A stretch of DNA of 64,000 bases from Desulfosudaceae bacterium (GTDB lineage Bacteria; Desulfobacterota; Desulfobacteria; Desulfobacterales; Desulfosudaceae): positions 672,001-736,000 of the forward strand of contig CAXXDV010000003.1 of NCBI GenBank assembly GCA_963674745.2, read 5' to 3'. The notes beneath the pieces were generated by a model that did no database searches, had not been told where the DNA came from, and saw nothing but the letters and a program-made list of their open reading frames with translations. Shown here piece by piece: positions 1,944 through 51,657 of the stretch. Positions within the stretch are counted from its first letter, which is position 1; the number at the start of each line of letters is the position of its first letter. The position numbers were made by a program, and so were the translations under genes.

Positions 1944-1969
1944 ATGCTTCAAATATGAGGAGGCGGATG

Positions 1970-2356
1970 ATGGAAAAGATCGCTTATTACAAAAATCTTT
2001 TTTTAATCGGTGCCACCTGGAACTGGCTGGCGACCCTGTCTTTCGCGCTGGGTTACAAATGGATTTTTGCTTTGTTTAGCATGAATTTGCCCGTGTTCCC
2101 GGTATTTTTTATTCTTTTTCTGGGCCTGGCTTTTGTTTTTGGTATCGGATATTACTGGGTGTCCAGGGATATCAACAAAAACCATGATATCGTCAAAATG
2201 GGTATCATCGGAAAAGTGTTCGTCTTTGTGGCCCTCCTGTGGGCTGGTATTTCCGGTCAAATCGCCTGGCCCTTGGCCGGCGCAGGAGTCGTAGATCTGC
2301 TTTTTGCGCTGCTTTTTATCGAATTTCTCATAACCTCGAGTAAACATTTGAATTGA
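1970..2356 (+). CDS. Small 4-TM membrane protein (paralog of 10325..10741)
   Basis: Four hydrophobic segments; AGGAGG SD; shares WN, FGxGY, D..KN, GIIxK, D..ALLF motifs with the paralog. Confidence 0.75.
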   Translation: MEKIAYYKNLFLIGATWNWLATLSFALGYKWIFALFSMNLPVFPVFFILFLGLAFVFGIGYYWVSRDINKNHDIVKMGIIGKVFVFVALLWAGISGQIAWPLAGAGVVDLLFALLFIEFLITSSKHLN

Positions 2357-6259: not shown

Positions 6260-7057
6260 TCAGGCACCCGAGAATTTGGGTTTGCGTTTCTGAAGATAGG
6301 CTTCGACACCTTCTTTAAAATCTTCGGAAAGCAGGGTCAACACAAACTGATCGACATCCATATGCGTGGTTGATTTGTCCAGGGCGTTGGCGACGGCGTT
6401 TACGGTCTGCTTGGTCATCGCGGCCGACACAGGCGGCAGGCAAAGGACTTTATCCGCGATTGCCCGGGCTTCATCCATGGTTTTGTTGTCAGGGCAGACC
6501 CTTTGGGCAAACCCCCAGTCATAAGCGTCTTTGGCGTAAACCTTATCACCGAACAGAACAATTTCCTTGGTCCTGGGCGGGCCAACCAGATGAACCAGCC
6601 GGGGGATCGTGGCCCAGCTCATGTTCATGGCCAGCCCGATTTCCGGAACCCGCATAAAGGCCGATTCCGCCATGACACGGAAGTCGCAGGCGCAGGCCAG
6701 GGAAACACCGCCGCCCACGCAGAAGCCTTCTATGGCGCATATGGTTATCTGATCCAGTTCTTCCCACATCCGGCACATCCTGGGGCCATATGCCATTAAT
6801 TTGCGTTTTTCAGCCAGGGTGGCGGTAAGCACTTGCGCCAGAGCAGGGTCGGCAAGATCGACGCCGGCACTGAAGCAACCGCCCGCGCCGGTTAAAATGA
6901 TCGCAGACACATCGGAACGCTTTTGAAAGCTTGCGGCCACGTCACAGAGTTTGTCCAGTACGTCCACGGACATGGCATTTTTTTGCCCGGGCCGGTTGAT
7001 GGTCACAATCGCCAGGGCGCCGTCATGGGTTGTGGTAATGACATTTTCATGAGTCAT
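6260..7057 (-). CDS. Enoyl-CoA hydratase/isomerase family protein
   Basis: INRPGQKNAM, FSAGVDL, GFCVGGG, PEIGL, KRKPKF motifs. Confidence 0.92.
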   Translation of the reverse strand: MTHENVITTTHDGALAIVTINRPGQKNAMSVDVLDKLCDVAASFQKRSDVSAIILTGAGGCFSAGVDLADPALAQVLTATLAEKRKLMAYGPRMCRMWEELDQITICAIEGFCVGGGVSLACACDFRVMAESAFMRVPEIGLAMNMSWATIPRLVHLVGPPRTKEIVLFGDKVYAKDAYDWGFAQRVCPDNKTMDEARAIADKVLCLPPVSAAMTKQTVNAVANALDKSTTHMDVDQFVLTLLSEDFKEGVEAYLQKRKPKFSGA

Positions 7058-7186: not shown

Positions 7187-7951
7187 TCAGCCGATAATCG
7201 AATCCAGCAATGAAGTGAGTTGACCCAGGGCCGGGCTGTCGTCCGGTATCTCCATCAGCGACCGGCCGGACAGATCAAAATCCGAAATCACCCGGTCCGG
7301 CTTGATACATCCGTAACACAGCATTTTTTGATCCGTGATCAGTTGAACCAGCTTGTTATCCGCTTCGTCAACACGGTTGAAAATGACGCCGGTTTTAATC
7401 GGGGCCATTTTAGGGATATCGTTGATAATCTCGTCGATCATGACTGCTGTTCTGACACTCCGCATGGAATTGTCGCAGACAATCACCGGGTAGTGAACTG
7501 TTTCGACCACCTTCCGGTTGACCTGTTCCAGGCCGGCTTCGGCGTCAATGATGATCACGTCATACTGGGATGAAATGGCAGCGATGGTTCCCCTGAGCAG
7601 TTCATTTAACGGACAGTAGCAGCCGATGTTATCGGTCCTGCCCATTACCAGGAGACTGAAATCGGGCGCTTCGTACAAGGCTTCGAGTATCAGATAATCG
7701 ATCATGTTGAAAAGGTCGGCCTTTTCTCCGGCGGCCTTTTTTTGCGCGGCTTTGCGGATAATTTTTTCCCGTGCCTGTCCGATTGTCTTCAAGTCTAAAA
7801 CGCCCAGCGAACCTTCAAGGCCCCTGGCCGGATCGGCGTCAACAAAAAGAACCCGTTTGCCCTGACCGGAGAAAATCTTGCCCGTGAGGGCGGACAGGAT
7901 TGTTTTCCCCACCCCGCCTTTGCCGGTAAACGCCATGATCAGGGGACTCAT
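7187..7951 (-). CDS. CooC/AcsF-type MinD-like ATPase (nickel insertase family)
   Basis: Deviant Walker A GKGGVGKT, DADP, Ni-binding GCYC motif, DAEAGLE. Confidence 0.88.
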   Translation of the reverse strand: MSPLIMAFTGKGGVGKTILSALTGKIFSGQGKRVLFVDADPARGLEGSLGVLDLKTIGQAREKIIRKAAQKKAAGEKADLFNMIDYLILEALYEAPDFSLLVMGRTDNIGCYCPLNELLRGTIAAISSQYDVIIIDAEAGLEQVNRKVVETVHYPVIVCDNSMRSVRTAVMIDEIINDIPKMAPIKTGVIFNRVDEADNKLVQLITDQKMLCYGCIKPDRVISDFDLSGRSLMEIPDDSPALGQLTSLLDSIIG

Positions 7952-7952
7952 A

Positions 7953-8723
7953 TCATGATCTCCTTTTTTTCCTTATCGCGGTTCTTATGGTGTCACAAAT
8001 CGGTTTGTCATCGCAGGCGCTGCAATCCAGGTCCGAACAACTGATGGTGCCGTCCGCTTCGAGTCTGAGCCGGGTGTGTTCCCCCCGGATGGCCGCCGCC
8101 CGTTTATGGATATCATCAATGGCGCTGATGACCTCCGGTATTTCCGCCACAATGATCACTTTGACATCTTTTATGTCGGGAAAAGCGTCCCTGTATGCAA
8201 AGATCAGGCACTGACCCAGAGCGGCCAGGGTGAACCCTTTTTTCATCAGGTCGTGGCTGATTCTGATCCAGAGCTTTCCGGGAATACTCCGGGTCATAAA
8301 ACCCGGAATTTTATTCGAGAGGTTTTTTGCGTTGTTAAAATCCGGCGACAGCGGATCAATATCCGGGCCCGGGTTGGTGATGACGGTTACGGCTATCGAT
8401 GCCGGCCCTTTTCCCATATCAGCCAATTCCGTTCCCAGTGTATAAACGGCATCCCGGCCGATATCCGATTCGCAGGTCCACAGAACGGCACTTGACGAAA
8501 TATGTGAGGGGGATCCGATTTCAAGAGCGGTATCACTTTCCGGGACGATAAAGGCGGTTTTCTTTCCGGATTTTTTTGAAACAAAACCAAGCCGTCCGGC
8601 TTCTTTGCCGTTATCAAAGGCGTAAGTCCTGAACGCGTTTTCATTTAGCATGTTCTCGATCAGATGGATCAGCGGCAGGTGGTCGCATACCGGCTGGTCT
8701 GTCCCGTTGCCCGTGTCAGTCAT
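7953..8723 (-). CDS. Truncated acetyl-CoA synthase (AcsB/CdhC) middle-domain-like protein with C-terminal Cys cluster
   Basis: LEIGSP; IPGFMTRS...LWIRISHDLMKKGFTLAALGQCL...AFPDIKDVKVII recalls the AcsB middle domain; C-terminal CSDLDCSACDDKPIC. Confidence 0.62.
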   Translation of the reverse strand: MTDTGNGTDQPVCDHLPLIHLIENMLNENAFRTYAFDNGKEAGRLGFVSKKSGKKTAFIVPESDTALEIGSPSHISSSAVLWTCESDIGRDAVYTLGTELADMGKGPASIAVTVITNPGPDIDPLSPDFNNAKNLSNKIPGFMTRSIPGKLWIRISHDLMKKGFTLAALGQCLIFAYRDAFPDIKDVKVIIVAEIPEVISAIDDIHKRAAAIRGEHTRLRLEADGTISCSDLDCSACDDKPICDTIRTAIRKKRRS

Positions 8724-9535
8724 TGGCGTTGCCTTTTGGGGGAAATGAAATTACCTCCGGCAATAACAGCGGCGCCGTAGGCCGCCATAAGTTGCGGATC
8801 AATATCCGAGTGTTTGACGGTTAGATTGGCCATTTTCTTCAACCGGGCCGTAAAAGCCGGCACCTTGGCCAGACCGCCTGACAGAATAATGTCGCTGTCG
8901 GTATCCGCACTGCTGAACATGGATGTCGTTTTGGAGGCGATGGAATCAATCACGCCGGCGATGACATCGTTTTTGTTTTTGCCGGCATTGACCTGGCTGA
9001 TGACACTGCTTTCGGCAAATACGGCGCAATTGCCGGCAATCATGAATTGCTCGGTGGCCTGTTCCGCGTAAGCTGAAATTTTTTCAAACGGAATCTGGAT
9101 GGCTTCGGCGACCATTTCCAGAAACTTACCGCTTCCGGCGGCACATCTTTCATTAACATAGTCCTGCTCGGCAAAGCCGCTATCGTCAATGGTAACGACT
9201 TTAATAAAAAAACCGCCGACATCAATAATGGTTCGGGCATTATTGTCAATCGAAAAGGCCCCGCGCGCAAGGCAGACGGGCTCGCTTAACCGGTAAGTCG
9301 CCTTGTTTACCAGCCTGGCACCGTATCCGGTTGCAACGGACTTTTTTACGGACCGGTTCCGTATTTTTTTCCCCCGGGCCGTGGCCGCCAGATCAAGCGC
9401 CTCGCGAAACGCGTGCCGGTACAATCTGTCAAACCGCCGGTCCATTTCGCGGCAGGCGTATCCGAGGAGCCTGGCATCTTCAACAAGGCAGATTTTCAGG
9501 AACCGTGTTCCGACGTCTATTCCGGCCGTTATCAT
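8720..9535 (-). CDS. ASKHA-family CoA-enzyme activase (HgdC/BcrA/BcrD-like), subunit 2
   Basis: GIDVGT, ATGYG, IDVGG, NERCAAGSG, NCAVFAES, LSGG, AYGAA motifs. Confidence 0.92.
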   Translation of the reverse strand: MITAGIDVGTRFLKICLVEDARLLGYACREMDRRFDRLYRHAFREALDLAATARGKKIRNRSVKKSVATGYGARLVNKATYRLSEPVCLARGAFSIDNNARTIIDVGGFFIKVVTIDDSGFAEQDYVNERCAAGSGKFLEMVAEAIQIPFEKISAYAEQATEQFMIAGNCAVFAESSVISQVNAGKNKNDVIAGVIDSIASKTTSMFSSADTDSDIILSGGLAKVPAFTARLKKMANLTVKHSDIDPQLMAAYGAAVIAGGNFISPKRQRQ

Positions 9536-10323
9536 GTTAAGCCTTTCATGGCGAAAACAGCCGCCCCCAGCGCCCCGGTTATTTGGGGGTCGATGTTCAG
9601 CCGGGTAAATTTCAGGCTCAGGTGCTTTTCAAGCTGCCGCACAACCCCCTGATTTTTTGATACGCCCCCGGTCAGACAGACATTTTTTTGAATTTCAATC
9701 ACCGTGGAAAGATCTGCGACCCTTTTGGCCACAGCATCAGAAAGCCCGGCGGCGATGTGTTTTAATTTCTTTTTTTCGTAAAGGGCTTCTAAAATTTCAA
9801 GTTCCATGAATATGCTGCATTTATTGGTAATATTTAATGGTTTGCGTGATTTTAACGTCAAGGGGCCTAAATCCTCAAGTTTTACCCCGATTGTTCTGGC
9901 CAGTATCTCCAGGGAGCGACCGGTGCCGGCCGCGCATTTATCGTTCATGGCGAAGTTTTTGATCAACCCCTTTTCATCGATTGAAATCACTTTGCAATCC
10001 TGGCCGCCGATATCGATGATCGTTCGAATGCTGTTATCGGCATAAAAAGCACCCATGCCATGGCAGGATATCTCGCTTAAATTCATATCCGCAAAAGGAA
10101 TACCGGTTCTTCCATATCCGGTACTGCAGCAGCGGGTAATATTGTCAAACGTCAGGCCGCTTGAGGAGAGTACCCGCTGCATGACGCAGGTCGCGGATTC
10201 TAAAACCGTCGGCTTTACCCTGATAATATCCGTGGCCAGGATCGATTGACCGTCCATGATCACGGCTTTTGCCGTAAGTGAACCCACATCACAACCGGCA
10301 AATATCTCTGTTTTCTGAATCAT
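9532..10323 (-). CDS. ASKHA-family CoA-enzyme activase (HgdC/BcrA/BcrD-like), subunit 1
   Basis: GCDVGSLTAK, STGYGR, IDIGGQD, NDKCAAGTGR, KCSIF, TGGV, GALGAA motifs. Confidence 0.93.
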   Translation of the reverse strand: MIQKTEIFAGCDVGSLTAKAVIMDGQSILATDIIRVKPTVLESATCVMQRVLSSSGLTFDNITRCCSTGYGRTGIPFADMNLSEISCHGMGAFYADNSIRTIIDIGGQDCKVISIDEKGLIKNFAMNDKCAAGTGRSLEILARTIGVKLEDLGPLTLKSRKPLNITNKCSIFMELEILEALYEKKKLKHIAAGLSDAVAKRVADLSTVIEIQKNVCLTGGVSKNQGVVRQLEKHLSLKFTRLNIDPQITGALGAAVFAMKGLT

Positions 10324-10324
10324 T

Positions 10325-10741
10325 TTATCCGATAAAATGGTTAACCGTCACGTTATCCCTGGTCAGCTGGAGAAAGCGGAAAAACAGTAGTGCCCATAAG
10401 AAATCTCCGAAAAGGGTTGAAAATGCCAGAAAGGTGGCCTGGCCGATGATAAAACACCAGGTAAATATCGCGAAAAGAATCAGTTTTGCGATGATTCCCA
10501 GCCAGATCACGACCCTGTTTTTCGTCAGGTCTGCGGCAACCGAGCAGTATCCGACACCGAAAATCACTACTGCCAGCATAAAAACCTTAAAAAACAGAAC
10601 CTGGTAAAAATTACCAGTCAGTGCCTGATCCCCCAGCAACAGCTTTGTCGCAAGAGTACCGAACGCCAGACCGAATACGCCCAATCCGATATTCCACAGC
10701 CCGCCCACAAAGAAAGCCTTCTTATAAAAATGGTAATTCAT
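10325..10741 (-). CDS. Small 4-TM membrane protein (paralog of 1970..2356), first gene of leftward operon
   Basis: Hydrophobic 138-aa ORF; GAGG SD; ends 1 nt before the activase start. Confidence 0.78.
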   Translation of the reverse strand: MNYHFYKKAFFVGGLWNIGLGVFGLAFGTLATKLLLGDQALTGNFYQVLFFKVFMLAVVIFGVGYCSVAADLTKNRVVIWLGIIAKLILFAIFTWCFIIGQATFLAFSTLFGDFLWALLFFRFLQLTRDNVTVNHFIG

Positions 10742-33496: not shown

Positions 33497-36400
33497 TTAA
33501 ATTTTAAAATAGGGGCAATCCTTCTGGATACACTCCCTGTTCCTGCCCTGCTGGCGGCACTGAACATCTCCGTCGGCCTTTAATGGCAGGGGCAGGTAGG
33601 TCTCGGATAATTCAGCCGCCGCCTTTAAAGCCGTCCAGACCTCACGCTGACAGCAGCGGGCGGCTTCCGTCCGGTTCAATCGGCTGATAATGGCTTCGGA
33701 AACCTTTTGAATGATCTGGCGGGGGCCGGGTGCGAGCGGGTTGCTTTTTAAAATAATGCCAAAGGCGATACCCACGCCCACGGCCGCGCCGCAGGTACCC
33801 CAGAATCCGCAGGCCCCGCCGGGTACGGCGCGTCCCCGTTCAATGGCGGTAACAATATCCTTTTCGGTCAGGTCGCCCCCCAGGTTTTTGTAAGTCGCGG
33901 TAATTACCCCCGGTACCGCAAAATGGTGCTCGGGACCGTGAACGGAAAAAGCCGGGTGCCGTCTGAGTTGATTGATCAGGTCGATCATGTCCACTAAGTC
34001 GGTATGGGTACAGACATGTTTGACAATATCGACCATGTCGCTGCCATGGCAACTGTCACAGACAAAGTGACCGTCTTCGCAGGCCGCGTTGGCCATGAGT
34101 TTATTCCCGCAGAAAACGCAGGTTTCCTGCCGGTCTTCGGAAAAATAGATCAGTGGCTTACCGCACAGCATGCAATCCCGACTGTGTTTTGGATCATTGT
34201 TCATAAAAAGAGCTGTAACGGGGGCCGGTTTGTCCCCGGCCGATCGACTGTCCTCAGGCGGAACGGAACAGTCACAACTCACAGCACCTTCAGGTGGTAT
34301 GCCACAGCTGCAGGCATTGGCTGCTTCTATGTTGTCGACATTGCCCATGGCATCGAGTTTGAAAATCGCTGAATCACCCTGGGCGTCATAGGGCCAGTTA
34401 ATTTCCGATACCTGTCCCCGCAGCAATAACTCTCCATCGTCGGTTACCACGGCCGCGTAAGGACCGGGATACATGGCCGGGGATTTTTCTTCCGGCATGG
34501 GCCGAAAGGCCGTATAGGTGACCGAATAAAAGTGGTGCCCCAGGACTTCTTTGTAGAAAAAACGTTTGACGATGCGGATATGGCAGAACCCGGCCGATTC
34601 CAGGATGGCGATCAGATGGGGCTGGACCAGGGCGCCGGCAATGCATTCTCCGCGCAGTTTGGCATCATTCTGAATGGCCGGCGGGCAGGGGGTGTCGGTG
34701 ACGACGTCGGAAATGAAGATCCGTCCCCCGGGCGTAAGAACTCGGAATATCTCGGAAAATGTCCGGCGCTTATCTTCGGAAAGGTTGATCACACAGTTGG
34801 ATATGACCACGTCAACCGTTTTGTCGCTTACGGGAAGCTGCTCGAGAAAGCCCTTTTTAAATTCGACGTTCCGGTATCCCAGGTTATCGGCCACTTCATC
34901 CATGGGGCGCCGGGCCAGGGCCAGCATATTGTCCAGCATATCGATGCCTGTCACCGAACCTTTCGGTCCGACCTTGCGGGCGGCAATGTAACATTCGACC
35001 CCGGCGCCCGAACCCAGGTCAACAACTGTTTCACCGGGTTTAATGGCGGCATCCAGCACCGGGCTGCCGCATCCGTATGAGCGGATCCGGGCTGCGGGCG
35101 GGATGTGCGGCATCTCGGCATCGGGATAACAGACCGGGTTGGTGATGTCTGTGTTCTCATCTTCTGCGGCGGTGGAATAAAATTCGCCGACAACCCCGCG
35201 GGTGCCGGAGAAAGTCAGTACGCAGTTGGAATGGGTCAGGGCAACACCTTCCCCTTCCTGAATGCAGTGCAGCAGTTTTTCCCCCATTTTTCGCCGGATC
35301 TGGGGCCAGGGCCGTTCTTCGACAATTTGGGCGGATTGAACCATCAGCCACAATGCCAGACGATTATAGAGCGGTACATAAGGATCATGACCGACATAGG
35401 CACCACCGGCATAATAGCTGTGGTCAATGTCGCCACCGCCGATGATATATTTCAGGGGGTTGGCATTGTAGTTGGTATCGCTCACGATGGATAATTCCCG
35501 AAGGGACGCCAGCGCCGGACTGTTTCGCCAGACGTTTTCCAGGTTTTCGGAAATGTGACCGCAGACCGTGTCTTTGCGGCCGATCAAGGCGGGGGTGGGG
35601 TAAACACTGCCGTTCGGGCCGATGGCCAGCGACTCCCAGCCGGCATTGCCAAGATCGTATCTGGTCCCCGGCGTGGAAAACACCTGGGCTGACAGGTTGG
35701 AGATATTATCGATGGTCACATTGTTTTTTTTCGCCAGGGCATGAGATTGAACCAGGTCGGAAAACAGTGCGTCGGCCGGCACATACGACAGGCCGGATGC
35801 CCGTCCGGTGTTCAGCAGCCACATGTAGTGGACGCTGTTGATGTTGTGCCGTGCGGCCAGTGACACCATGTCCGTCATCTGGTGCCGGTTATCGGGCGTA
35901 ACCGCCATGGAAAGGGTCGTCTGGAGGCCCAGCCCGTCAAGGGCCGTCAGCCCGTTTACGATTTTTGCAAATGATCCCTTGCCTCGCAGGTCGTCGTTGA
36001 CATCTTCAAGTCCGTCCAGGCTGACCTGGAGAAAAAGCCGGTCGGATGGCAGCGACTGTAAAAAGGACCGTTGTTCCGGTAGTAAAATGCCGTTGGTCAG
36101 GATGGCCAGCATGGTATCGGGAAAATCAAACAGAACCAGACGGCATATCTGTTGAAAGTCCGGATGAACAAGGGGCTCTCCACCGGTCAGGTAAAAGACG
36201 CGGGTGCCCAGGCCGTATGCATCAGAAACAACCGTCTTGATCGATTCCAGGGAAAGCGTCGTCTGTGTCTTTGCCGAGCATGAAAACAGGCAATGACGGC
36301 AGGACAGGTTGCATTGATCGGTAATATGCAGCCAGCATTCTTTCAAGTGGTTCAGTTGCAGAGCGCCGGCACGTCCGTCATAATCTTCGATTTCCGGAGA

Positions 36401-36640
36401 CGTCAGCAGGGAAAGAAACTGGGTTACACGCATGATGTCCGCAAAATCGGTTCCGCCGGATGCTTTGGCATGATATCGGCGATCGCCGATAATCGCCATC
36501 TCACCATATTCGATTACATTCTGCAGCAAGCGGTCTCCGGTTGAACTGGGGACCATCCAGTCCGGCGTATCAGGCCGGATAAATACCGGTGTATTATCAA
36601 GTTCAAATCTTACCCAGTCCTCGAAACGGTTTTTCTTCAC
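33497..36640 (-). CDS. Radical SAM + degenerate SPASM-like + ArsM-like methyltransferase + Cys-rich (DUF5714-like) fusion protein
   Basis: CNLSCRHC, TGGEP, LTNG, SLDG; YGCGSP, DLGSGAG, SNCVINL, GECIAGA; CMLCG..CVFCG..CEDGHFVCDSCH, HGPEHH, GGACGFWGTCGAA, RCCQR. Confidence 0.9.
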   Translation of the reverse strand: MKKNRFEDWVRFELDNTPVFIRPDTPDWMVPSSTGDRLLQNVIEYGEMAIIGDRRYHAKASGGTDFADIMRVTQFLSLLTSPEIEDYDGRAGALQLNHLKECWLHITDQCNLSCRHCLFSCSAKTQTTLSLESIKTVVSDAYGLGTRVFYLTGGEPLVHPDFQQICRLVLFDFPDTMLAILTNGILLPEQRSFLQSLPSDRLFLQVSLDGLEDVNDDLRGKGSFAKIVNGLTALDGLGLQTTLSMAVTPDNRHQMTDMVSLAARHNINSVHYMWLLNTGRASGLSYVPADALFSDLVQSHALAKKNNVTIDNISNLSAQVFSTPGTRYDLGNAGWESLAIGPNGSVYPTPALIGRKDTVCGHISENLENVWRNSPALASLRELSIVSDTNYNANPLKYIIGGGDIDHSYYAGGAYVGHDPYVPLYNRLALWLMVQSAQIVEERPWPQIRRKMGEKLLHCIQEGEGVALTHSNCVLTFSGTRGVVGEFYSTAAEDENTDITNPVCYPDAEMPHIPPAARIRSYGCGSPVLDAAIKPGETVVDLGSGAGVECYIAARKVGPKGSVTGIDMLDNMLALARRPMDEVADNLGYRNVEFKKGFLEQLPVSDKTVDVVISNCVINLSEDKRRTFSEIFRVLTPGGRIFISDVVTDTPCPPAIQNDAKLRGECIAGALVQPHLIAILESAGFCHIRIVKRFFYKEVLGHHFYSVTYTAFRPMPEEKSPAMYPGPYAAVVTDDGELLLRGQVSEINWPYDAQGDSAIFKLDAMGNVDNIEAANACSCGIPPEGAVSCDCSVPPEDSRSAGDKPAPVTALFMNNDPKHSRDCMLCGKPLIYFSEDRQETCVFCGNKLMANAACEDGHFVCDSCHGSDMVDIVKHVCTHTDLVDMIDLINQLRRHPAFSVHGPEHHFAVPGVITATYKNLGGDLTEKDIVTAIERGRAVPGGACGFWGTCGAAVGVGIAFGIILKSNPLAPGPRQIIQKVSEAIISRLNRTEAARCCQREVWTALKAAAELSETYLPLPLKADGDVQCRQQGRNRECIQKDCPYFKI

Positions 36641-43056: not shown

Positions 43057-43249
43057 AACAAAAATTGTAAGTATCGGTTGAATATTATTAATCCCGTAAA
43101 ACCACATCTCCCCTCAAAGGATTTTTTCTGGATTGGAGAAAGACGTTTTTGGTTTTAAAGGCAATTCCGGCGGCGATGAATCCGGAATCCGCTGTTCTGG
43201 ATGCTTTCGGCCGGCAATGGTGTGCCGGCAACGGAGAAAATCGAAAATT

Positions 43250-46200
43250 ATGAGATCCCGAGTTTTTGCTATAAGAAACAACCCCTTGCCCTTCCTTTTT
43301 TCATGCTTTATCTGGGTTTCAATATCCCTTTTGATCGGTCAGGCATTTATTGTTCCAGATGCCGGCGCCCAATGCGTTTCGTGCGCCAGGGAACAATCCT
43401 TTGACAATCTTTTTCAAAAGCTCGAGCAGGCGGAATCAATCAGGGTCATTGTCTGGCTGGATGTGGACGGCATAAAAGATCTGACGGCCGCTTCCAATGG
43501 CTTTTCGGTGGTTGCACCGGGCAGATCATTTCCCCAATCCGGAAAAGACGCGGACCGCAGATTGAAAGCGGCCATTGATGGTGTGGCCGATGGGGTCGTC
43601 AACGCCCTGAAGGGAACGGCTTTTAGAGTAAGTTCAAGGTTTTCGACGCTTCCATTGATTGCCATGGAGGTTTCGGCCGACGCTCTGGCGACCCTGGAAA
43701 CACTGCCCCGGGTGGTTAATTGCGTGCCGGATCGACCGGTTAAACTCATCCAGCCCATCGAGGGAAGGGTACCGGCGGGCAAATCCGGCAAGACTGTATC
43801 GGGCAGGGGCGCTGCCGACTTGAGTAAACCGTTTTTAAACAATACCACCGGCATTATCGGGGCGGAAGACGCCTGGGCCATGGGGTACACCGGTTCGGGC
43901 TGGTATGTGGCCGTCCTGGATACCGGGATTCGAAGCTCGCACGCGTTTTTTGCCGGAAAAACCATCGTGGAAAAGTGCTATTCAGCAAACAATGACTGCC
44001 CGGATGGTACCGACGAGGACGAGGGTTCCGGGGCGGCCGCGCATTATGCGTCAAGTTATCAGGGCTATGATCATGGCACCCACGTGACCGGGATCGCCGT
44101 CGGCAACAACGGTACCCTGTTCGGGGTGGCCAAAGATGCCGATATCATTGCCGTTCAGGTGTTCTCCAGATTCCCGGCGACTAGGCCTGAATGCGGCGGC
44201 TCTCCCTGCGTCATGAGTTATGACAGTGATTCGCTCAAGGGGCTTGAATATGTCTACGGGTTACGGTCGACCTACAGTATTGCTTCGGTCAATATGAGCC
44301 TGGGCGGCGGTGCCTATTCAGACTTTTGTGATGATGAAGACGCCGACCGGAAAACGGCCATCGACAACCTGCGCGCGGTGGGCATTGCCACCGTCATTGC
44401 CACCGGCAATGAATACCTTTGCGGCCAGGTCAGTTCCCCGGCCTGTGTTTCAACATGTATATCCGTGGGCGCGTCGAATGATAGTGACGTCCAGGCCTCG
44501 TTCAGCAACTGGCATCCGGTCATGCAGCGGTTTTTTGCGCCCGGTGTGTCGATAAATTCTTCAACCGGCGTTTCGGACACCAGTTATGCGTCATGGGGCG
44601 GCACGTCCATGGCCACGCCCCATGTGGCCGGCGCCTGGGCCATTTTACGCCAGGCCGATCCCGCGGCCTCGGTAACGGATATTTACGATGATCTGACCGC
44701 AACCGGGACCCTGATAACCACCACCTGTGCGGGCGGCGGCAGTGTGCCCCGGATCAACATCGACCGTGCCATTTCCTGTGATCCTAATGCTTTAGCGGTT
44801 GACGCGTTCTTGCCGCAGGCATCGGCGGTCTTGATGCCCGGCAGCCAGGTGACGCTGAATGCCCGGGTGTCCGGTGATTGCGGCGGCCTGGTGGACGGCG
44901 TGACAGTATCGGCCACGTTTTCAAATGGCGATGGTGCAGTACAAATGTATGACGACGGCCTGCATGACGACGGGGCTGCTGACGACGGTCTTTATGGCAA
45001 CTGGTGGATACCGGTTAATGAACAGGACCCGACCACCATTACCTATACCGCTTCAAAAACCGGTTACACTTCAGGTTCGGACCAGGTTGATGTTACGGTG
45101 GTCATGGATTATTGTCCTGCCGGAGCAGGTGACAGTTCATATGAACATATCGCTAACGTGACCTTTGCCGGTATCGATAATGATTCGACCTATTCGGGCG
45201 GGTATGCGGATTATACCGCCGGTACACCGGCAAATGTGACAGCCGGGACAGACGTCAATCTCTCGGTAACCATCAGCCCGGACTCCGGGGATTATTTATC
45301 GGTATTTATCGACTGGAACCGGAACTTAATTTTTGATGATCCGGCTGAAAGATACGACCTGGCGGCTGCGACAGATCAATCCGGTCCGTTTACCACCCTG
45401 GTATCCGTTCCCGAGGACGCGGCCCTGGGTGATACGCGCATGCGGGTTGTGTTGAAATGGGGGGAACGTCCGGATCCGTGTGGCGGTTTTAACTATGGTG
45501 AAGTGGAAGACTATACGGTTAATATCGCCTGTTCTCCGATCATACTGGTAGTTGACGCCCTGTCACCCACGGCCGGTGCGTTTATAGTCCCGGGCGTTGC
45601 CACGCTCCTTCAGGCCGGTTTGGCCGATCAGTGCGGAGACCCGGTCAGCGGTGCGACCGTGGAGGCAACCTTTTCAAACGGCGACAGCCCGGTTCAATTG
45701 TATGACGACGGTCTTCATGATGACGGTGCCGCCGATGACGCTCTTTTCGCCGACTGGTGGACACCGGTTAACGAGCAGGACCCGACCACTATTACATTTA
45801 CGGCCTCAAAAACCGGTTACACATCGGGCACGGACCTGGTCGATGTGGCGGTTGTGTCCGATTATTGCGATGCCGGCGGGCTTGACAGCATAATGGAATA
45901 TATTACCAACGTGACCTTTGCCGGTATTGATAATGATTCTACCCAGGCGGGCGGATATGCGGATTATACGGCCGGTACCCCCGGGAATGTGACGGCCGGG
46001 ACAGACGTCAACCTGTCGGTTACCATCAATCCGGATGCTGATGATAATGTGTCGGTATTTATCGACTGGAACCGGAACCTGGTGTTTGACGATCCCGACG
46101 AGCGATATGACCTGGTGAGCGCGACGGATCAGCCCGGTCCGTTTTCTACGCTGGTGTCGGTTCCTGCGGATGCCGTTTTGGGCGACACGTGTCTGCGGGT

Positions 46201-47113
46201 GGTGTTAACCCGCGACACCACGCCGGTGCCATGCGGAACCTTTGATTATGGCGAGGTCGAAGACTACACCGTTAATGTGGCTTGCAATTCGAGTCTTTTG
46301 TCGGTTGATATAATTTCTCCGTTGCCCTTTGCGACCGTCACCCTGGGAAATCAGGTGACGATTCAGGCGCAGGTTTCAGATCAATGCGGTGTTTTTGTGG
46401 ACGACATTACCGTGGAAACGACCTTTTCCAATGGCGATAATCCGGTATTGTTGTACGACGACGGTCTTCACGGTGACGGTGCCGCCGATGACGGCCTTTA
46501 TGGCAACTGGTGGATACCGGTCAATGAACAGGATCCGACCACGATTACCTGTACGGCCTCAAAAACCGGTTTTGTGTCAGCCACGGACCAGGTCGATGTC
46601 TATTTTATAGTGGTTGCAACCCGATTCCTGCCCTTGATCGGGGGCTGGAACCTGATATCCCTGCCGCTTTCGCCGCTGGACAAGGCCATTGAAACCGTTT
46701 TGTCCTCCATTGCGGGTAAGTATATCAGCGTCTGGTCTTTTTCTTCGGGCGCCTGGAAATTTTATGACCCGGCCAGTCCCGGTTTCAATGATCTGTTCGA
46801 GATGGATGCCGGCATCGGCTACTGGGTCAACATGTCCGAAACTGCGACACTTACACTTCTGGGGACCGTGCCACAGAACAGTATCGCCATTTTAAACGGG
46901 TGGAACCTGGTGGGCTATAATTCCTTCTCGGTTCAGGATCCGGCAACGGCTTTGGCCTCAATCGCGGGCCACTATGTTCTTGTGTGGGCATATGTTAATA
47001 ATGCCTGGCTGATGTACGATCCGGCCAATCCGGGCTTAAACAATCTGCCGACCATGGAATCCGGTTTAGGGTACTGGATAAACGCAAGCGGGGATTGTAC
47101 CTGGACAATGTGA
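43250..47113 (+). CDS. Secreted modular subtilase (S8) 1: prodomain, S8, three YDDG (choice-of-anchor-X-like) and two GEVED domains, duplicated GWNL C-terminal repeat
   Basis: Triad LDTG / HGTHV / GTSMATPHV; repeats YDDGLHDDGAADDG and GEVEDY; start may be as far upstream as 43133. Confidence 0.92.
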   Translation: MRSRVFAIRNNPLPFLFSCFIWVSISLLIGQAFIVPDAGAQCVSCAREQSFDNLFQKLEQAESIRVIVWLDVDGIKDLTAASNGFSVVAPGRSFPQSGKDADRRLKAAIDGVADGVVNALKGTAFRVSSRFSTLPLIAMEVSADALATLETLPRVVNCVPDRPVKLIQPIEGRVPAGKSGKTVSGRGAADLSKPFLNNTTGIIGAEDAWAMGYTGSGWYVAVLDTGIRSSHAFFAGKTIVEKCYSANNDCPDGTDEDEGSGAAAHYASSYQGYDHGTHVTGIAVGNNGTLFGVAKDADIIAVQVFSRFPATRPECGGSPCVMSYDSDSLKGLEYVYGLRSTYSIASVNMSLGGGAYSDFCDDEDADRKTAIDNLRAVGIATVIATGNEYLCGQVSSPACVSTCISVGASNDSDVQASFSNWHPVMQRFFAPGVSINSSTGVSDTSYASWGGTSMATPHVAGAWAILRQADPAASVTDIYDDLTATGTLITTTCAGGGSVPRINIDRAISCDPNALAVDAFLPQASAVLMPGSQVTLNARVSGDCGGLVDGVTVSATFSNGDGAVQMYDDGLHDDGAADDGLYGNWWIPVNEQDPTTITYTASKTGYTSGSDQVDVTVVMDYCPAGAGDSSYEHIANVTFAGIDNDSTYSGGYADYTAGTPANVTAGTDVNLSVTISPDSGDYLSVFIDWNRNLIFDDPAERYDLAAATDQSGPFTTLVSVPEDAALGDTRMRVVLKWGERPDPCGGFNYGEVEDYTVNIACSPIILVVDALSPTAGAFIVPGVATLLQAGLADQCGDPVSGATVEATFSNGDSPVQLYDDGLHDDGAADDALFADWWTPVNEQDPTTITFTASKTGYTSGTDLVDVAVVSDYCDAGGLDSIMEYITNVTFAGIDNDSTQAGGYADYTAGTPGNVTAGTDVNLSVTINPDADDNVSVFIDWNRNLVFDDPDERYDLVSATDQPGPFSTLVSVPADAVLGDTCLRVVLTRDTTPVPCGTFDYGEVEDYTVNVACNSSLLSVDIISPLPFATVTLGNQVTIQAQVSDQCGVFVDDITVETTFSNGDNPVLLYDDGLHGDGAADDGLYGNWWIPVNEQDPTTITCTASKTGFVSATDQVDVYFIVVATRFLPLIGGWNLISLPLSPLDKAIETVLSSIAGKYISVWSFSSGAWKFYDPASPGFNDLFEMDAGIGYWVNMSETATLTLLGTVPQNSIAILNGWNLVGYNSFSVQDPATALASIAGHYVLVWAYVNNAWLMYDPANPGLNNLPTMESGLGYWINASGDCTWTM

Positions 47114-47219: not shown

Positions 47220-47361
47220 ATTAAATATTTTTAAATATTGGTTTTTTATTAAAAAATCACCTTCCCAGGGACAGCGCCAATAATTTAAAATGCATTTTTG
47301 ATCAGTGTTTTGTTTTTTCACTGGCCGTCTGTTTTTTAATTTATTCAGGATGGAAAAACTG

Positions 47362-50300
47362 ATGAAAGAAAAAAACGAAAACCTGAGGCAGACGCAGCCG
47401 GCTTTATTATCGGTTGCCGTGGCCTGGCTGGTGGTCATAATTCTGGCCGGTCAGTTTGCGGCAGTCAGAATGGCAGGTGCGCAATGCACCAATTGTTCAC
47501 GCGAAGCATCTTTTGATCAACTGTTTGAGGAAGCCGCGCAAAAGGGCTCTGTGATGATCATTGTGCGGTTGAACATTGCCAGGCTGCAGGAGTTGACGGC
47601 CGCTTCCAATGCCTACTCCGTGATGCAGCCCGGCAGATCATTCCCTCAATCCGGAAAAGACGCGGATCTTGCCTTGAAAGCCGCCATAGACGGAGTGGCG
47701 GACGCCGTCGTCAACACCTTGAAAGGCACGGCTTTTACTGTGACAAGGCAATTCTCAACCCTGCCCCTGATCGCCATGAGAGTGTCGCCTGATGCCCTGG
47801 CGGTTCTGGAAACGCTGCCCCAGGTGGCCAATTGTGTGCCTGATCGACCCGTCAGGCTTGAGCCCCCGATTGAAGGGCTGTCAACAAGGAGCAAGCCTGA
47901 AGATTTTACATGGGAAAAGGGTGTTCTTGACCTGAACAAACCGCTTTTGAACGATACCACCGGCATCATCGGCGCGGAAGACGCCTGGGCCATGGGGTAT
48001 ACCGGTTCGGGCTGGTATGTGGCGGTGCTGGATTCCGGGATTTTAAACACCCACGAGTTTTTTGCCGGAAAAACCATCGTGGAAAAATGTTATTCCCTGA
48101 GAAGCAACTGCCCCAATGGTACCGACGAGGATGTCGGACCGGGGTCGGCAGCCCATTATTCCTCAATCTATCAGAGTTATGACCATGGAACGCATGTGGC
48201 CGGGATCGCCACCGGCAATAACGGCACCCTGTTCGGGGTGGCCAAAGACGCTGATATCATTGCCGTTCAGGTGTTCTCACGGTTTACGCCCACAGAATGC
48301 TGCGGTGACCCTGACGGTACTCCCTGTGTCATGAGCTATACCAGTGATCAGCTTAAAGGGCTTGAATATGTCTACGGGTTACGGTCAACCTACAGTATTG
48401 CTTCGGTCAACATGAGCCTGGGGGGCGGTGAATATTCGGACTTTTGTGACGATGCACAAGTTGAGCGGAAAGCGGCCATCGACAACCTGCGCGCGGTGGG
48501 TATTGCCACGGTCATTGCCACCGGCAATGACGGCTACTGCGGCGCGGTCAGTGCCCCGGCCTGTATTTCCTCCGCCATATCCGTGGGCGCGTCGTATGAT
48601 AATGACACCGAAGCGCCGTTTAACAACTGGCACCCGGTTCTGCAGCGGTTCTTCGCGCCCGGTGTGTCGATTTATTCTTCAACCGCTGATACCAATACCA
48701 GCTATGAGTACTGGAACGGCACGTCCATGGCCACGCCCCATGTGGCCGGTGCCTGGGCTATTTTACGCCAGGCCGATCCCGCGGCCTCGGTAACGGATAT
48801 TTACGATGACCTGGTGGCGACCGGTACCCCGGTATCAACCGCATGCACTACCGGCGGCAGTGTGCCCAGGATTAATATTGACTCGGCCATTTATTGTGAC
48901 CCCGCTGTATTGCTGATCGATGCCCTTTTACCCGAATCAGCAGCAGGTTTGAAGCCCGGTGTCCAGGCAACACTTAAGGCGCGGGCCTCTAATGATTGTA
49001 ACCGCTATGTTTACGGGGTAGCCGTGGAGGTTATTTTTTCCAATGGTGACAGCCCCATACAATTATATGACGACGGTCTCCATAGTGACGGCGCCGCCTA
49101 TGACGGCATTTTTGGCAACTGGTGGATACCGATAAACGAACAGGACCCGACCACCATTACGTATACGGCGACAAAAACCGGTTATACGTCGGGTATGGAC
49201 CAGGTTGATGTAACCGTTGTTGCCGAGTATTGCGATGCCGGAGGGACTGATGCTGCAGATGTATATATATCCAATGTCACCTTTGCGGGTATCGATAATG
49301 ATTCAATTGAAGTGAGCGGTTATTCGGATTACACCTCGGGTACGGCAGCCAGTGTGTCTCCCGGTACGGATGAAGTTCTGTCTGTTACCATCAGCACGAT
49401 GGGTTATCAATTTTTAACCGTATTTATTGACTGGAATCATAATTTCAGCTTTAACGATGCGGGCGAACGATACGATCTGGCCAGTTCAACAAGTCTACCC
49501 GGCCCCTATACCACTACAATTTCAGTGCCCGCGGACGCTGCACCGGGTGACACACGTATGCGGGTGGTACTGAATTTTATGGCCGGTGCTGAGTCGTGCG
49601 GGATTTTCAAGTTTGGTGAGGTAGAGGACTATACCGTCAGTGTTGTTTGTGATCCCAACATATTGATGGTTGACGCCCTGTCGCCCGATGACGCGGCGAA
49701 TGTTGCTTCCGGCGTCGCTACCCTCCTTCAGGCCGATGTGGCCGATCAGTGCGGTGACCCGGTCAGCGGTGTGACCGTAGAAGCGACTTTTTCCAATGGC
49801 GACAGTGCGGTACCGCTTTACGACGACGGCCTTCATGATGACGGCGTTGCCGATGACGGCCTTTTTGCCGACTGGTGGACGCCGGTCACCGAGCAGGATC
49901 CGACCACCATTACCTTTACGGCTTCAAACACCGGTTACACCTCGGGCACAGACCAGGTTGATGTGGCGGTTGTGTCCGATTATTGCGCTGCCGGCGGGCT
50001 TGATAGCGCTTCCGACTATATCACCAATCTCACGTTTGCCGGAATTGATAATAATTCGACCCAGGCGGGCGGGTATGCGGATTATACGGCGGGTATACCG
50101 GCAAATGTGGTCAGCGGAACAAATTTAAATCTATGGGTTACCATTTCGCCCGACACCAATGATTACCTGTCGGTTTTTATCGACTGGAACCAGGATATGG
50201 TGTTCGACGATCCGGATGAGCGATATGATCTGGCCGGTCCGACGGATCAGCCCGGTCCGTTTACTTCGTTGATATCCGTTCCCGCTGATGCGGTTTTAGG

Positions 50301-51657
50301 CGATACGTGTCTGCGGGTAGTGATGACGCGCGACACCGTATCTTTACCCTGCGGATCATTCGACTACGGTGAAGTGGAAGATTATACCGTCAATGTCGCC
50401 TGTAATACCGGCTTGTTGACGGTTGAGGCGCTTTCCCCGGCGCCGGCGGCCGTTCTCGCCCTGGGAAGTCAAACAATTCTGCAGGCACGGGTCTCAGGTC
50501 AATGCGGCGCGTTAACAGGTGGTGCCGCGGTGGAAACGACTTTTTCCAATGGCGATAGCCCGATTCAGTTGTATGACGACGGCCTGCATGATGACGGCGT
50601 TGCGGATGACGGTATATTCGGCAACTGGTGGATGCCGGTCAACCAGCAGGATCCCACCACCATAACTTATACGGCTTCAGCAACCGGCTATCCGCCGTCC
50701 ACGGACCGGGTCGATGTCACCGTGGGAACGGAGTATTGCAGTGCTGCCGGAGCGGAGTCCACAATTTCTTATATCTCCAATGTCACCTTTGCCGGCATCG
50801 ACAATGATTCGACCCAGGAAGGCGGTTATTCTGATTTCACCGCGGGTACGCCGGCAACTGTTACGCCCGGCACGGATGAAATCCTGTCGGTTACCATCTT
50901 CCCCCGCATATTTGAAAATGTGTCTGTGTTTATCGACTGGAATCAGAATGCGGTTTTTGACGATCCCGGCGAAAGCTATGTCATCGTGGCCGATGCTGGT
51001 GGTGTGGCCGGACCATTTACAGTATTGATCCCGGTGCCCGTGGATGCCCCTGCCGGGGATACCCGGATGCGGGTGATCATGACCCTCATTTTTTCTCCTG
51101 TCCCATGCGGTACATTTATATACGGAGAGGTGGAAGATTACACCGTCCATGTTAATCCCCTGACCGCGTCGTTGGATCTTTTTGCCGGCTGGAACCTGAT
51201 ATCCCTGCCGCTTTCGCCGCTGGATGGGGCCATTGAAACCGTTTTAAACCCCATAGCCGGAAAATATATCAGTGTCTGGTCGTTTTCTGCGGGTGCCTGG
51301 AAACTTTATGACCCGGCCAGTCCGGGTTTCAGCGATTTGTTTGAGATGGATGCCGGCATTGGATACTGGATCAATATGACTGAAGCGGCAACCCTTGATC
51401 TTACCGGGGTGACGCCGCCGGGATTTATACCTGTATCAAATGGATGGAATTTGGTGGGGTATAATTCTTCCTCAATCCAGGATCCGGCCACGACCATGGC
51501 ATCAATTGCGGGTCAATATGTGTCTGTATGGGCATACATCAACAATGTCTGGCTGATGTACGATCCGGCCAATCCCGGTTTCAGTGATCTGCCGACCATG
51601 GAACCCGGTTTCGGCTACTGGATAAACGCCACATCGAGCTGCACCTGGACGATGTGA
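47362..51657 (+). CDS. Secreted modular subtilase (S8) 2: paralog with three YDDG and three GEVED domains
   Basis: LDSG / HGTHV / GTSMATPHV; same repeat types; identical CTWTM terminus. Confidence 0.92.
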   Translation: MKEKNENLRQTQPALLSVAVAWLVVIILAGQFAAVRMAGAQCTNCSREASFDQLFEEAAQKGSVMIIVRLNIARLQELTAASNAYSVMQPGRSFPQSGKDADLALKAAIDGVADAVVNTLKGTAFTVTRQFSTLPLIAMRVSPDALAVLETLPQVANCVPDRPVRLEPPIEGLSTRSKPEDFTWEKGVLDLNKPLLNDTTGIIGAEDAWAMGYTGSGWYVAVLDSGILNTHEFFAGKTIVEKCYSLRSNCPNGTDEDVGPGSAAHYSSIYQSYDHGTHVAGIATGNNGTLFGVAKDADIIAVQVFSRFTPTECCGDPDGTPCVMSYTSDQLKGLEYVYGLRSTYSIASVNMSLGGGEYSDFCDDAQVERKAAIDNLRAVGIATVIATGNDGYCGAVSAPACISSAISVGASYDNDTEAPFNNWHPVLQRFFAPGVSIYSSTADTNTSYEYWNGTSMATPHVAGAWAILRQADPAASVTDIYDDLVATGTPVSTACTTGGSVPRINIDSAIYCDPAVLLIDALLPESAAGLKPGVQATLKARASNDCNRYVYGVAVEVIFSNGDSPIQLYDDGLHSDGAAYDGIFGNWWIPINEQDPTTITYTATKTGYTSGMDQVDVTVVAEYCDAGGTDAADVYISNVTFAGIDNDSIEVSGYSDYTSGTAASVSPGTDEVLSVTISTMGYQFLTVFIDWNHNFSFNDAGERYDLASSTSLPGPYTTTISVPADAAPGDTRMRVVLNFMAGAESCGIFKFGEVEDYTVSVVCDPNILMVDALSPDDAANVASGVATLLQADVADQCGDPVSGVTVEATFSNGDSAVPLYDDGLHDDGVADDGLFADWWTPVTEQDPTTITFTASNTGYTSGTDQVDVAVVSDYCAAGGLDSASDYITNLTFAGIDNNSTQAGGYADYTAGIPANVVSGTNLNLWVTISPDTNDYLSVFIDWNQDMVFDDPDERYDLAGPTDQPGPFTSLISVPADAVLGDTCLRVVMTRDTVSLPCGSFDYGEVEDYTVNVACNTGLLTVEALSPAPAAVLALGSQTILQARVSGQCGALTGGAAVETTFSNGDSPIQLYDDGLHDDGVADDGIFGNWWMPVNQQDPTTITYTASATGYPPSTDRVDVTVGTEYCSAAGAESTISYISNVTFAGIDNDSTQEGGYSDFTAGTPATVTPGTDEILSVTIFPRIFENVSVFIDWNQNAVFDDPGESYVIVADAGGVAGPFTVLIPVPVDAPAGDTRMRVIMTLIFSPVPCGTFIYGEVEDYTVHVNPLTASLDLFAGWNLISLPLSPLDGAIETVLNPIAGKYISVWSFSAGAWKLYDPASPGFSDLFEMDAGIGYWINMTEAATLDLTGVTPPGFIPVSNGWNLVGYNSSSIQDPATTMASIAGQYVSVWAYINNVWLMYDPANPGFSDLPTMEPGFGYWINATSSCTWTM

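Follow-up and report, generated by a model that had tools for sequence, protein, structure and literature searches.

An acetyl-CoA synthase middle-domain homologue paired with a CooC-like ATPase in a benzoyl-CoA reductase-type gene cluster

The gene pair and its products

We analyzed a minus-strand gene pair in a 64,000-nucleotide (nt) stretch of a Desulfosudaceae genome (contig CAXXDV010000003.1; hereafter the window, with coordinates counted from its position 1). The pair encodes a 256-amino acid (aa) protein related to acetyl-CoA synthase (ACS), here called mini-ACS, and a 254-aa CooC-like ATPase. Both open reading frames (ORFs) were present as described in an initial annotation of this DNA, and the 256-aa protein contained all of the strings listed there, GFMTRS, LWIRISHDLMKKGFTLAALGQCL, AFPDIKDVKVII and CSDLDCSACDDKPIC (residues 229-243). 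The 1-nt spacing between the two genes was confirmed at the junction (TCA TGA T ATG), with AAGGAG immediately upstream. A 4-nt overlap (ATGA) joins the start of mini-ACS to the stop of the 271-aa BcrAD gene before it, and the 271-aa and 263-aa BcrAD genes also overlap by 4 nt. The gene order on the minus strand is 138-aa hydrophobic protein, BcrAD (263 aa), BcrAD (271 aa), mini-ACS and CooC-like ATPase, with an enoyl-CoA hydratase gene further downstream. Divergent from this BcrAD–BcrAD–miniACS–CooC operon are genes for an HGD-D protein (375 aa), a GMC-type flavoprotein (450 aa) and a second HGD-D protein (467 aa) (Table 1). Four genes of this BcrAD/HGD-D cluster, which is of the class I benzoyl-CoA reductase (BCR)/DCCP family, are translationally coupled, and mini-ACS is the third of them.

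Sequence, profile and fold comparisons showed that the 256-aa protein is genuinely homologous to A2, the CoA-binding middle domain of ACS. Pfam CdhC (PF03598) matched residues 62-194 at 31.5 bits, above the gathering cut-off of 24, and matched a mini-ACS paralogue of the same genome (locus L004) at 43.9 bits. The NCBIfam ACS models placed residues 63-204 on ACS positions 313-457 of 705, with a best score of 45.9 bits that fell short of the equivalog/subfamily cut-off of 372. A phmmer search of the PDB returned ACS chains only (best E 0.0014). With a profile of 125 family members, hmmsearch aligned profile positions 34-233 to residues 317-517 of C. hydrogenoformans ACS (E 2.2e-23), and hhalign against seven genuine ACS sequences of the same phylum covered mini-ACS residues 52-215 (Prob 99.3, E 2.2e-20). 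An AlphaFold2 model from six sequences (pLDDT 79) gave 23 Foldseek matches at E<=0.001, all of them ACS chains with a best E of 1.7e-10; the match listed next had an E of 0.6. A model from 125 sequences (pLDDT 92.1, pTM 0.88) was compared with 48,161 PDB representatives by VIA, which returned 3git_A at Z 20.0 (root-mean-square deviation 2.5 Å, 178 residues) and ACS 7nyp_A at Z 19.6; the next best fold reached Z 4.2. Pfam CdhC, the family profile, hhalign, Foldseek and VIA all agree with the match to the AcsB middle domain that had been proposed initially.

Little of ACS follows this domain. PF19436 gave no match to mini-ACS at E<=0.01, 13 residues remain between C243 and the C terminus, and the 256-aa sequence holds no Cys-Gly-Cys, as the initial annotation had stated. 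Longer fused forms of mini-ACS were not found by the search, which is weak evidence only. In a tree, the eight ACS A2 domains included grouped as a single long-branched clade (support 100), separate from the 50 mini-ACS sequences.

A four-Cys knot, C229-x4-C234-x2-C237-x5-C243, lies near the C terminus. Across 125 full-length homologues, C234, C237 and C243 were invariant and C229 was conserved in at least 90%. All four were invariant in six close homologues, and distant members retained only C-x2-C-x5-C, a core known from other cluster proteins. The hmmsearch alignment paired C229, C234 and C243 with ACS C505, C508 and C517 (7zkj numbering), positions that we take to be cubane ligands. These match the first three cysteines of the C-x2-C-x8-C-x9-C motif in the genuine ACS alignment, which shows C514, C517, C526, C536 and C603-G-C605. 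The spacing between C234 and C243 (x8) is the same as in ACS and C237 is extra, while the fourth cubane Cys and the Cys-Gly-Cys of genuine ACS are missing. The alignment is suggestive, but not secure, in placing the knot where ACS begins its A-cluster cubane ligands.

The CoA site was compared with that of C. autoethanogenum ACS. In a preprint on that enzyme (10.1101/2024.08.05.606187), acetyl-CoA is bound mainly to A2, Trp405 stacks on its adenine, and Arg383 and His386 are placed for acetyl transfer. W152, invariant in the mini-ACS family, aligns with the Trp of the ACS sequence WVRISKEA and corresponds, by offset arithmetic on the profile alignment, to the Trp405 described there.

CooC1 and AcsF are nickel-insertion ATPases, and AcsF matures ACS with ATP. 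The initial annotation had named a CooC-type ATPase as the partner of mini-ACS, and CooC1 (3kje) proved to be the best PDB match of the 254-aa protein over its full length (E 5e-11, residues 6-234 against 3-233), with the CxC motifs aligned. The protein carries a GKGGVGKT Walker A motif and the intact GCYC reported initially (residues 110-113). A SIMIBI P-loop with the signature Lys and a Cys-x-Cys were both found, and by these sequence features we assign it to the CooC/AcsF family. Over all loci, 76 CooC-like ORFs were collected, including those from 40 places picked solely by similarity to the window's ATPase, and all 76 had CxC at the aligned position. The 75 non-identical rows included 31 beside mini-ACS, 20 in BcrAD/HGD-D clusters without mini-ACS, 8 beside genuine ACS/CO dehydrogenase (CODH) operons, 4 beside a GMC flavoprotein only and 12 beside none of these partners. 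For the unlinked genes at loci L095, L098, L103, L110 and L116, no common neighbor was found.

Outside their own group, the CooC-like genes have their closest relatives beside genuine ACS operons; these relatives are 31-37% identical to the window's ATPase. In a quick tree the ACS-linked genes formed one clade (support 99), the larger group holding this clade had as its sister a 21-row clade of BCR-only and GMC-only genes, and the mini-ACS-linked ATPases were paraphyletic around the ACS-linked and BCR/GMC-only clades; the sample was picked by query similarity and is biased, and the branching order is not to be over-read. The window's ATPase and mini-ACS fell into the same six-locus clade in both trees (support 99 and 100, respectively), the pattern expected for linked genes inherited together.

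The same genome holds further copies. At locus L004 (5760-14181; G000:C1, ~1.30 Mb), the 246-aa mini-ACS paralogue lies between two HGD-D pairs and three BcrAD genes, and no CooC-like gene was found nearby. Locus L091 (7891-12845; G000:C3, ~0.81 Mb) combines an HGD-D pair with genes for a CooC-like ATPase and a GMC flavoprotein; neither a BcrAD gene nor mini-ACS lies within 9 kb. In the trees, the clade of the L004 mini-ACS matches the clade of the unlinked L091 CooC-like gene.

The surrounding reductase cluster

The neighboring genes resemble those of ATP-driven reductases. The 271-aa BcrAD protein scored above the cut-off for the NCBIfam acyl-CoA dehydratase activase domain, and the PDB matches of the 263-aa protein included HadI (4eht, 4.8e-58) and MbdQ (9gai_D, 1.8e-53). 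The 375-aa HGD-D subunit matched BzdN, HadC and DCCP about equally (BzdN 8s02_B, 7.9e-32), and the 467-aa subunit matched DCCP (7.9e-12) and BzdO (2.6e-9). The [8Fe-9S] double-cubane ligands of BzdN are Cys36/73/100/263/293/327 according to PMC11971306, and all six of them were conserved in the residue alignment of the 375-aa subunit. All six were also kept in 78 of the 80 BzdN-like subunits across the loci; the L091 subunit was the one clear exception (pattern YCCSHC). BcrAD-type ATPases, an HGD-D pair and the double-cubane ligands, which define the class I BCR/HAD/DCCP family, were thus all found. All NCBIfam benzoyl-CoA reductase equivalog cut-offs were missed (BzdN 121.5 against 453.8, BzdQ 188.2 against 380.2), and from these scores we therefore place the reductase in the class I BCR/DCCP family as a member not yet characterised.

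Table 1. Features of the gene pair and its surroundings in the window
Feature	Coordinates	Strand	Basis
Mini-ACS, 256 aa	7953..8723	-	ORF; ACS A2 (CoA-binding) domain homologue, C-terminal four-Cys knot, basic tail
CooC/AcsF-family P-loop ATPase, 254 aa	7187..7951	-	ORF; best PDB match CooC1 3kje
Cys knot codons of mini-ACS (C229-x4-C234-x2-C237-x5-C243)	7995..8039	-	Conservation in 125 homologues
C111-Y-C113 codons, putative metal-binding motif of ATPase	7613..7621	-	Alignment to CYC of CooC1
BcrAD-type ATPase 2, 271 aa	8720..9535	-	Pfam BcrAD_BadFG 1.3e-30
BcrAD-type ATPase 1, 263 aa	9532..10323	-	Pfam 6.5e-51
Hydrophobic protein, 138 aa, operon head, membership uncertain	10325..10741	-	No Pfam match
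BzdN-like HGD-D subunit, 375 aa	11005..12132	+	Pfam HGD-D 1.1e-82
GMC-type FAD protein, 450 aa	12159..13511	+	Pfam GMC_oxred_N and GMC_oxred_C
BzdO/HadB-like HGD-D subunit, 467 aa	13531..14934	+	Pfam HGD-D 7.3e-55
Enoyl-CoA hydratase, same strand, downstream of pair	6260..7057	-	Pfam ECH_1 1.3e-43

The enoyl-CoA hydratase gene points to an acyl-CoA substrate, and such genes are present in several related loci too. The GMC-type flavoprotein contains an inserted C-x3-C-x2-C-x3-C-P motif (about residues 154-167) and is therefore probably an FAD and Fe-S protein. It recurs in related loci, including all six Spirochaetota loci, and sometimes stands alone beside a CooC-like gene (L101, L103, L106 and L107). 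Homologues of the 138-aa hydrophobic protein were found 3-6 kb from mini-ACS in loci L007, L009, L056 and L135. Another small hydrophobic protein of similar size is encoded at 1955-2356 (+), and neither belongs to a Pfam family. At locus L012 (1779-5981, on the same contig as L049), a 1400-aa ORF with a BcrAD domain lies near a mini-ACS cluster and may be a fused activase-dehydratase form.

Within the 64-kb window no CODH, corrinoid protein or Wood-Ljungdahl methyltransferase gene was found, in agreement with the initial annotation, and the Wood-Ljungdahl (CODH/ACS) operon is located elsewhere in the same genome. The genuine ACS gene of this genome (locus L005; G000:C1:2388262-2390473) is split inside A3 into two overlapping frames (8263-9993 and 9887-10474), with PF19436 positions 1-44 in the first ORF and 50-245 in the second. 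The rest of that operon seems intact, and the split is either a frameshift or a sequencing error.

Other genes of the window included a 277-aa flavodoxin-like domain fused to a 4Fe-4S ferredoxin motif (1004-1837, +), located 5 kb from the operon and a possible candidate electron donor. Farther away were a 1047-aa fusion of radical SAM, class I methyltransferase and DUF5714 domains (33497-36640, -) and tandem giant S8 subtilases of 1326 and 1450 aa with GEVED domains (43133-47113 and 47305-51657, +).

Distribution and gene linkage

A HMMER scan of 1.84 billion representatives detected 408 mini-ACS proteins at E<=0.001, 213 at E<=1e-10 and 59 at E<=1e-30, and nearly all family members were ~250 aa long. 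In public records they are labelled either "hypothetical protein" or, by automatic annotation, "CO dehydrogenase/acetyl-CoA synthase beta subunit". Among the Atlas clusters, those of 239-280 aa are recorded from Myxococcota, Thermodesulfobacteriota and Bacillota. In a sample of 401 genomes of the window's phylum, 34 contained a mini-ACS-type match (E<=1e-38); the genuine ACS genes of the sample reached only 1e-9 to 1e-30, with the A2 part alone matched. In Spirochaetota, mini-ACS occurred in 5 of 201 genomes. A decaying, functionless remnant of ACS might be suspected from a shortened version of a larger enzyme. The number of representatives at these thresholds, their nearly uniform length, the cysteines and synteny conserved across phyla, and the separate long-branch clade of the ACS A2 domains contradict such decay, and we give this explanation practically no chance.

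We compiled 56 distinct mini-ACS loci, consisting of the window, the L004 paralogue of the same genome, 10 loci from a pattern scan, 40 places from the 401-genome search (two of them duplicating earlier loci) and 6 Spirochaetota loci. In this survey of gene neighborhoods, which the initial annotation had proposed, BcrAD and/or HGD-D genes were present in 51 of the 56 loci and a CooC-like gene in cis in 37, so that mini-ACS is linked more strongly to the reductase genes than to the CooC-like gene. All six Spirochaetota loci had the full gene set. The five loci without reductase genes were two at contig ends (L060 and L065), one on a 5.7-kb contig (L067) and two of an orphan subfamily (L071 and L080). 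The linkage of mini-ACS to reductase genes recurs in at least four phyla, of which Thermodesulfobacteriota and Spirochaetota were established from genome samples and the others from record labels.

The orphan subfamily (267 aa, from one genus) comprises L071 (2024-2827), L080 (9311-10114) and L067 and has no BcrAD/HGD-D neighbors. It adjoins an acyl-CoA dehydrogenase gene (L071 and L080) and a family III CoA-transferase gene (in L080).

These linkages bear on the view of mini-ACS as an autonomous, reduced (Ni)Fe-S enzyme that derives from ACS, is served by a private CooC Ni-insertase and works alone outside the Wood-Ljungdahl pathway, which was the overall reading of the initial annotation. 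Its A2 homology with a Cys knot at the A-cluster position, the kinship of the CooC-like genes with ACS-linked AcsF-type genes, the constant presence of a CooC-like gene in mini-ACS genomes (34/34, see below) and the orphan subfamily all speak for it. Similarity to AcsB, conserved cysteines and co-occurrence with CooC, without which it had been said to fail, were found. However, 51 of the 56 loci lie within BcrAD/HGD-D clusters and the window's gene is translationally coupled to a BcrAD gene, Cys-Gly-Cys is absent and the acetyl-transfer Arg and His are not conserved, and the ATPase is not private, since 20 of its 75 rows belong to BCR-only clusters. What stands of the initial reading is the ACS homology, the truncation and the CooC-type partner; its autonomy and the private insertase gave way to a four-gene coupled cluster and a separable ATPase. 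We regard an autonomous enzyme as highly improbable.

We next considered presence at the genome level. Among the 401 genomes, a BzdN-like gene was found in 114, a CooC-like gene (E<=1e-35) in 72 and mini-ACS in 34. A CooC-like gene accompanied mini-ACS in all 34 genomes, in 32 of them at E<=1e-35 and in the other two (G181 and G288) adjacent to mini-ACS by phmmer. Of the 81 BzdN-like genomes without mini-ACS, 24 had a CooC-like gene and 57 had none. In this sample, therefore, mini-ACS never occurs without the ATPase, the ATPase is found without mini-ACS, and the reductase family often lacks both. An asymmetry of this kind would be expected if mini-ACS and the ATPase were client and chaperone and the chaperone had a second client.

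The same counts bear on a possible role of the pair in assembling the [8Fe-9S] double cubane of the BzdN-like subunit, with mini-ACS as scaffold or carrier and the ATPase driving cluster insertion or fusion. NifH, an ATPase related to the CooC-like proteins, acts in P-cluster formation and offers a parallel. The six double-cubane cysteines are kept in nearly all BzdN-like subunits (78/80), the CooC-like gene accompanies such clusters even without mini-ACS, and family f54 has unlinked CooC-like genes alongside several mini-ACS clusters per genome, which fits a trans-acting factor. Set against this are the 57 of 114 BzdN-like genomes with neither gene and a comparison set without single-cubane enzymes. 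To our knowledge, the pair is missing from canonical BCR operons, and a heterologous host has yielded DCCP with its cluster in place. An assembly line for the double cubane appears very unlikely.

Electron transfer was considered as another role. Mini-ACS could be a dedicated [4Fe-4S] carrier, a ferredoxin substitute feeding the BcrAD bridging cluster, while the ATPase serves something else. The conserved four-Cys motif and the separability of the CooC-like gene from mini-ACS are consistent with this, and class I BCRs require a low-potential donor, as stated in PMC11971306. Small ferredoxin-motif ORFs were rare in all three locus classes (3/31, 1/20 and 0/16). They are, however, just as rare in clusters without mini-ACS, and no complementary pattern emerges; moreover, a carrier would leave unexplained both the retention of a 150-residue CoA-binding fold with its adenine-stacking Trp and the 34/34 tie to the CooC-like gene. 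We consider a dedicated electron carrier unlikely. A complex prediction of BcrAD-1 and BcrAD-2 with mini-ACS as partner returned no answer (score 0.00, without controls) and speaks neither for nor against binding.

Predicted role and comparison with known systems

Taken together, the best reading is that the pair is neither a free-standing miniature acetyl-CoA synthase nor a part of CO2 fixation. It is very probably an accessory of the reductase cluster, and we slightly favor the fuller prediction of an accessory to an ATP-driven Fe-S reductase of the class I BCR/double-cubane family that acts on acyl-CoA. In the proposed mechanism, the Cys knot would hold a [4Fe-4S]-type cluster, and the CooC-like dimer, with ATP and its CxC site, would mature the Cys-knot site by analogy to AcsF on ACS. 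Mature mini-ACS, which keeps the adenine-stacking Trp without the acetyl-transfer Arg and His, may hold the CoA end of the substrate or dock on the reductase, and would assist the BcrAD/HGD-D enzyme in redox steps or in substrate handling. Since CooC-like genes are also found in BcrAD/HGD-D clusters without mini-ACS, the ATPase would have one or more additional clients or roles. For the action of the ATPase on mini-ACS we see even chances, and the involvement of nickel at the mini-ACS site is doubtful.

Several observations weigh against the accessory reading or its parts. No CooC-like gene lies in cis in 19 of the 56 mini-ACS loci, and 20 of the 75 CooC-like genes are in BcrAD/HGD-D clusters without mini-ACS, even by profile search; the two genes can thus be separated, and the client of the ATPase may instead be the reductase. 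With 57 of the 114 BzdN-like genomes carrying neither mini-ACS nor a CooC-like gene, the pair is not needed by the enzyme family in general. The genome-level association is overstated because the counted genomes are related, and the thresholds were set by us. At the CoA site, offset arithmetic on the profile alignment places Arg383 and His386 on N131 and K133, in non-conserved columns; the pattern of W152 versus N131/K133 would fit CoA binding kept without ACS catalysis, but the conservation of W152 and R154 may come from fold constraints alone. The initial annotation had located the Cys cluster at the start of the A-cluster ligands. The hmmsearch alignment and the same x8 spacing back this placement, but hhalign ends at residue 215, before the motif, and the Cys-to-Cys equivalence with the A-cluster therefore rests on one low-confidence alignment tail.

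A bolder version of the accessory reading is that mini-ACS bears a stripped-down A-cluster, in which a [4Fe-4S] cubane would be bridged via C234 to a single nickel or other metal and act on an acyl-CoA thioester held by the A2 surface. We rate this as quite unlikely. If true, the nickel-iron-sulfur cofactor and the type of reaction would both be new and would be coupled to an ATP-driven double-cubane reductase; in evolutionary terms, mini-ACS would be a side branch from one of the most ancient enzymes.

Both ACS and the chaperones that supply its nickel count as hallmarks of the Wood-Ljungdahl pathway. The widespread, conserved offshoot seen here has retained no more of ACS than the CoA-binding domain and the start of the metal site, travels with an AcsF-like ATPase, and is tied to ATP-driven BCR/double-cubane enzymes in several phyla. 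Should its site prove to be a novel Fe-S or Ni-Fe-S centre, the poorly understood low-potential reductases would gain both a cofactor and a partner, and the 256-aa protein would be a tractable model for A-cluster construction. For annotation, a ~250-aa "CO dehydrogenase/acetyl-CoA synthase beta subunit" in a BcrAD/HGD-D context is no sign of carbon fixation. Neither the mini-ACS/CooC pair nor an A2-only ACS family was found described in the searchable literature, subscription-only papers and supplements lying outside it. A2-A3 and A1-A3 variants, but no A2-only form, are named in the consulted section of a 2026 ACS phylogeny preprint (PMC13370988), and keyword look-ups in two papers on double-cubane enzymes returned no mention of mini-ACS, a CooC-like ATPase or a GMC-type flavoprotein. 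New here are the separability of mini-ACS and the ATPase, the genome-level asymmetry, the double-cubane ligands of the neighbor and the residue mapping onto ACS.

Compared with ACS (AcsB A1-A3, archaeal CdhC A2-A3; PDB 7zkj, 1oao, 3git and 9c0s), mini-ACS shares the A2 fold and sequence, the W-x-R-I-S strand with the adenine-stacking Trp, the Cys motif at the A2/A3 boundary with x8 between two cubane ligands, and a CooC/AcsF-type ATPase as neighbor. Unlike ACS, it has no A1 domain and nearly no A3, lacks the fourth cubane Cys, the Cys-Gly-Cys nickel site and the conserved acetyl-transfer Arg and His, and has C237 in addition. Its sequences fall outside the single ACS A2 clade, and its neighbors are BcrAD/HGD-D genes, whereas those of ACS are CODH, CoFeSP or methyltransferase genes. 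The window's ATPase resembles CooC1/AcsF (PDB 3kje) over its full length, with a deviant Walker A and CxC at the dimer-interface position, and the relatives to which it is 31-37% identical stand beside genuine ACS/CODH operons of the same phylum. Unlike CooC1/AcsF, it is encoded in a BCR/DCCP-type cluster, and in the biased quick tree the ACS-linked genes are nested among BCR- and mini-ACS-linked ones. With BzdNOPQ/MbdONQP and with DCCP and its ATPase (PDB 8s02, 9gai, 6eno and 7yyl), the window shares two BcrAD and two HGD-D genes, and its BzdN-like subunit shares all six [8Fe-9S] ligand cysteines with class I BCR. Unlike these systems, its cluster adds mini-ACS, a CooC-like ATPase and a GMC-type flavoprotein.

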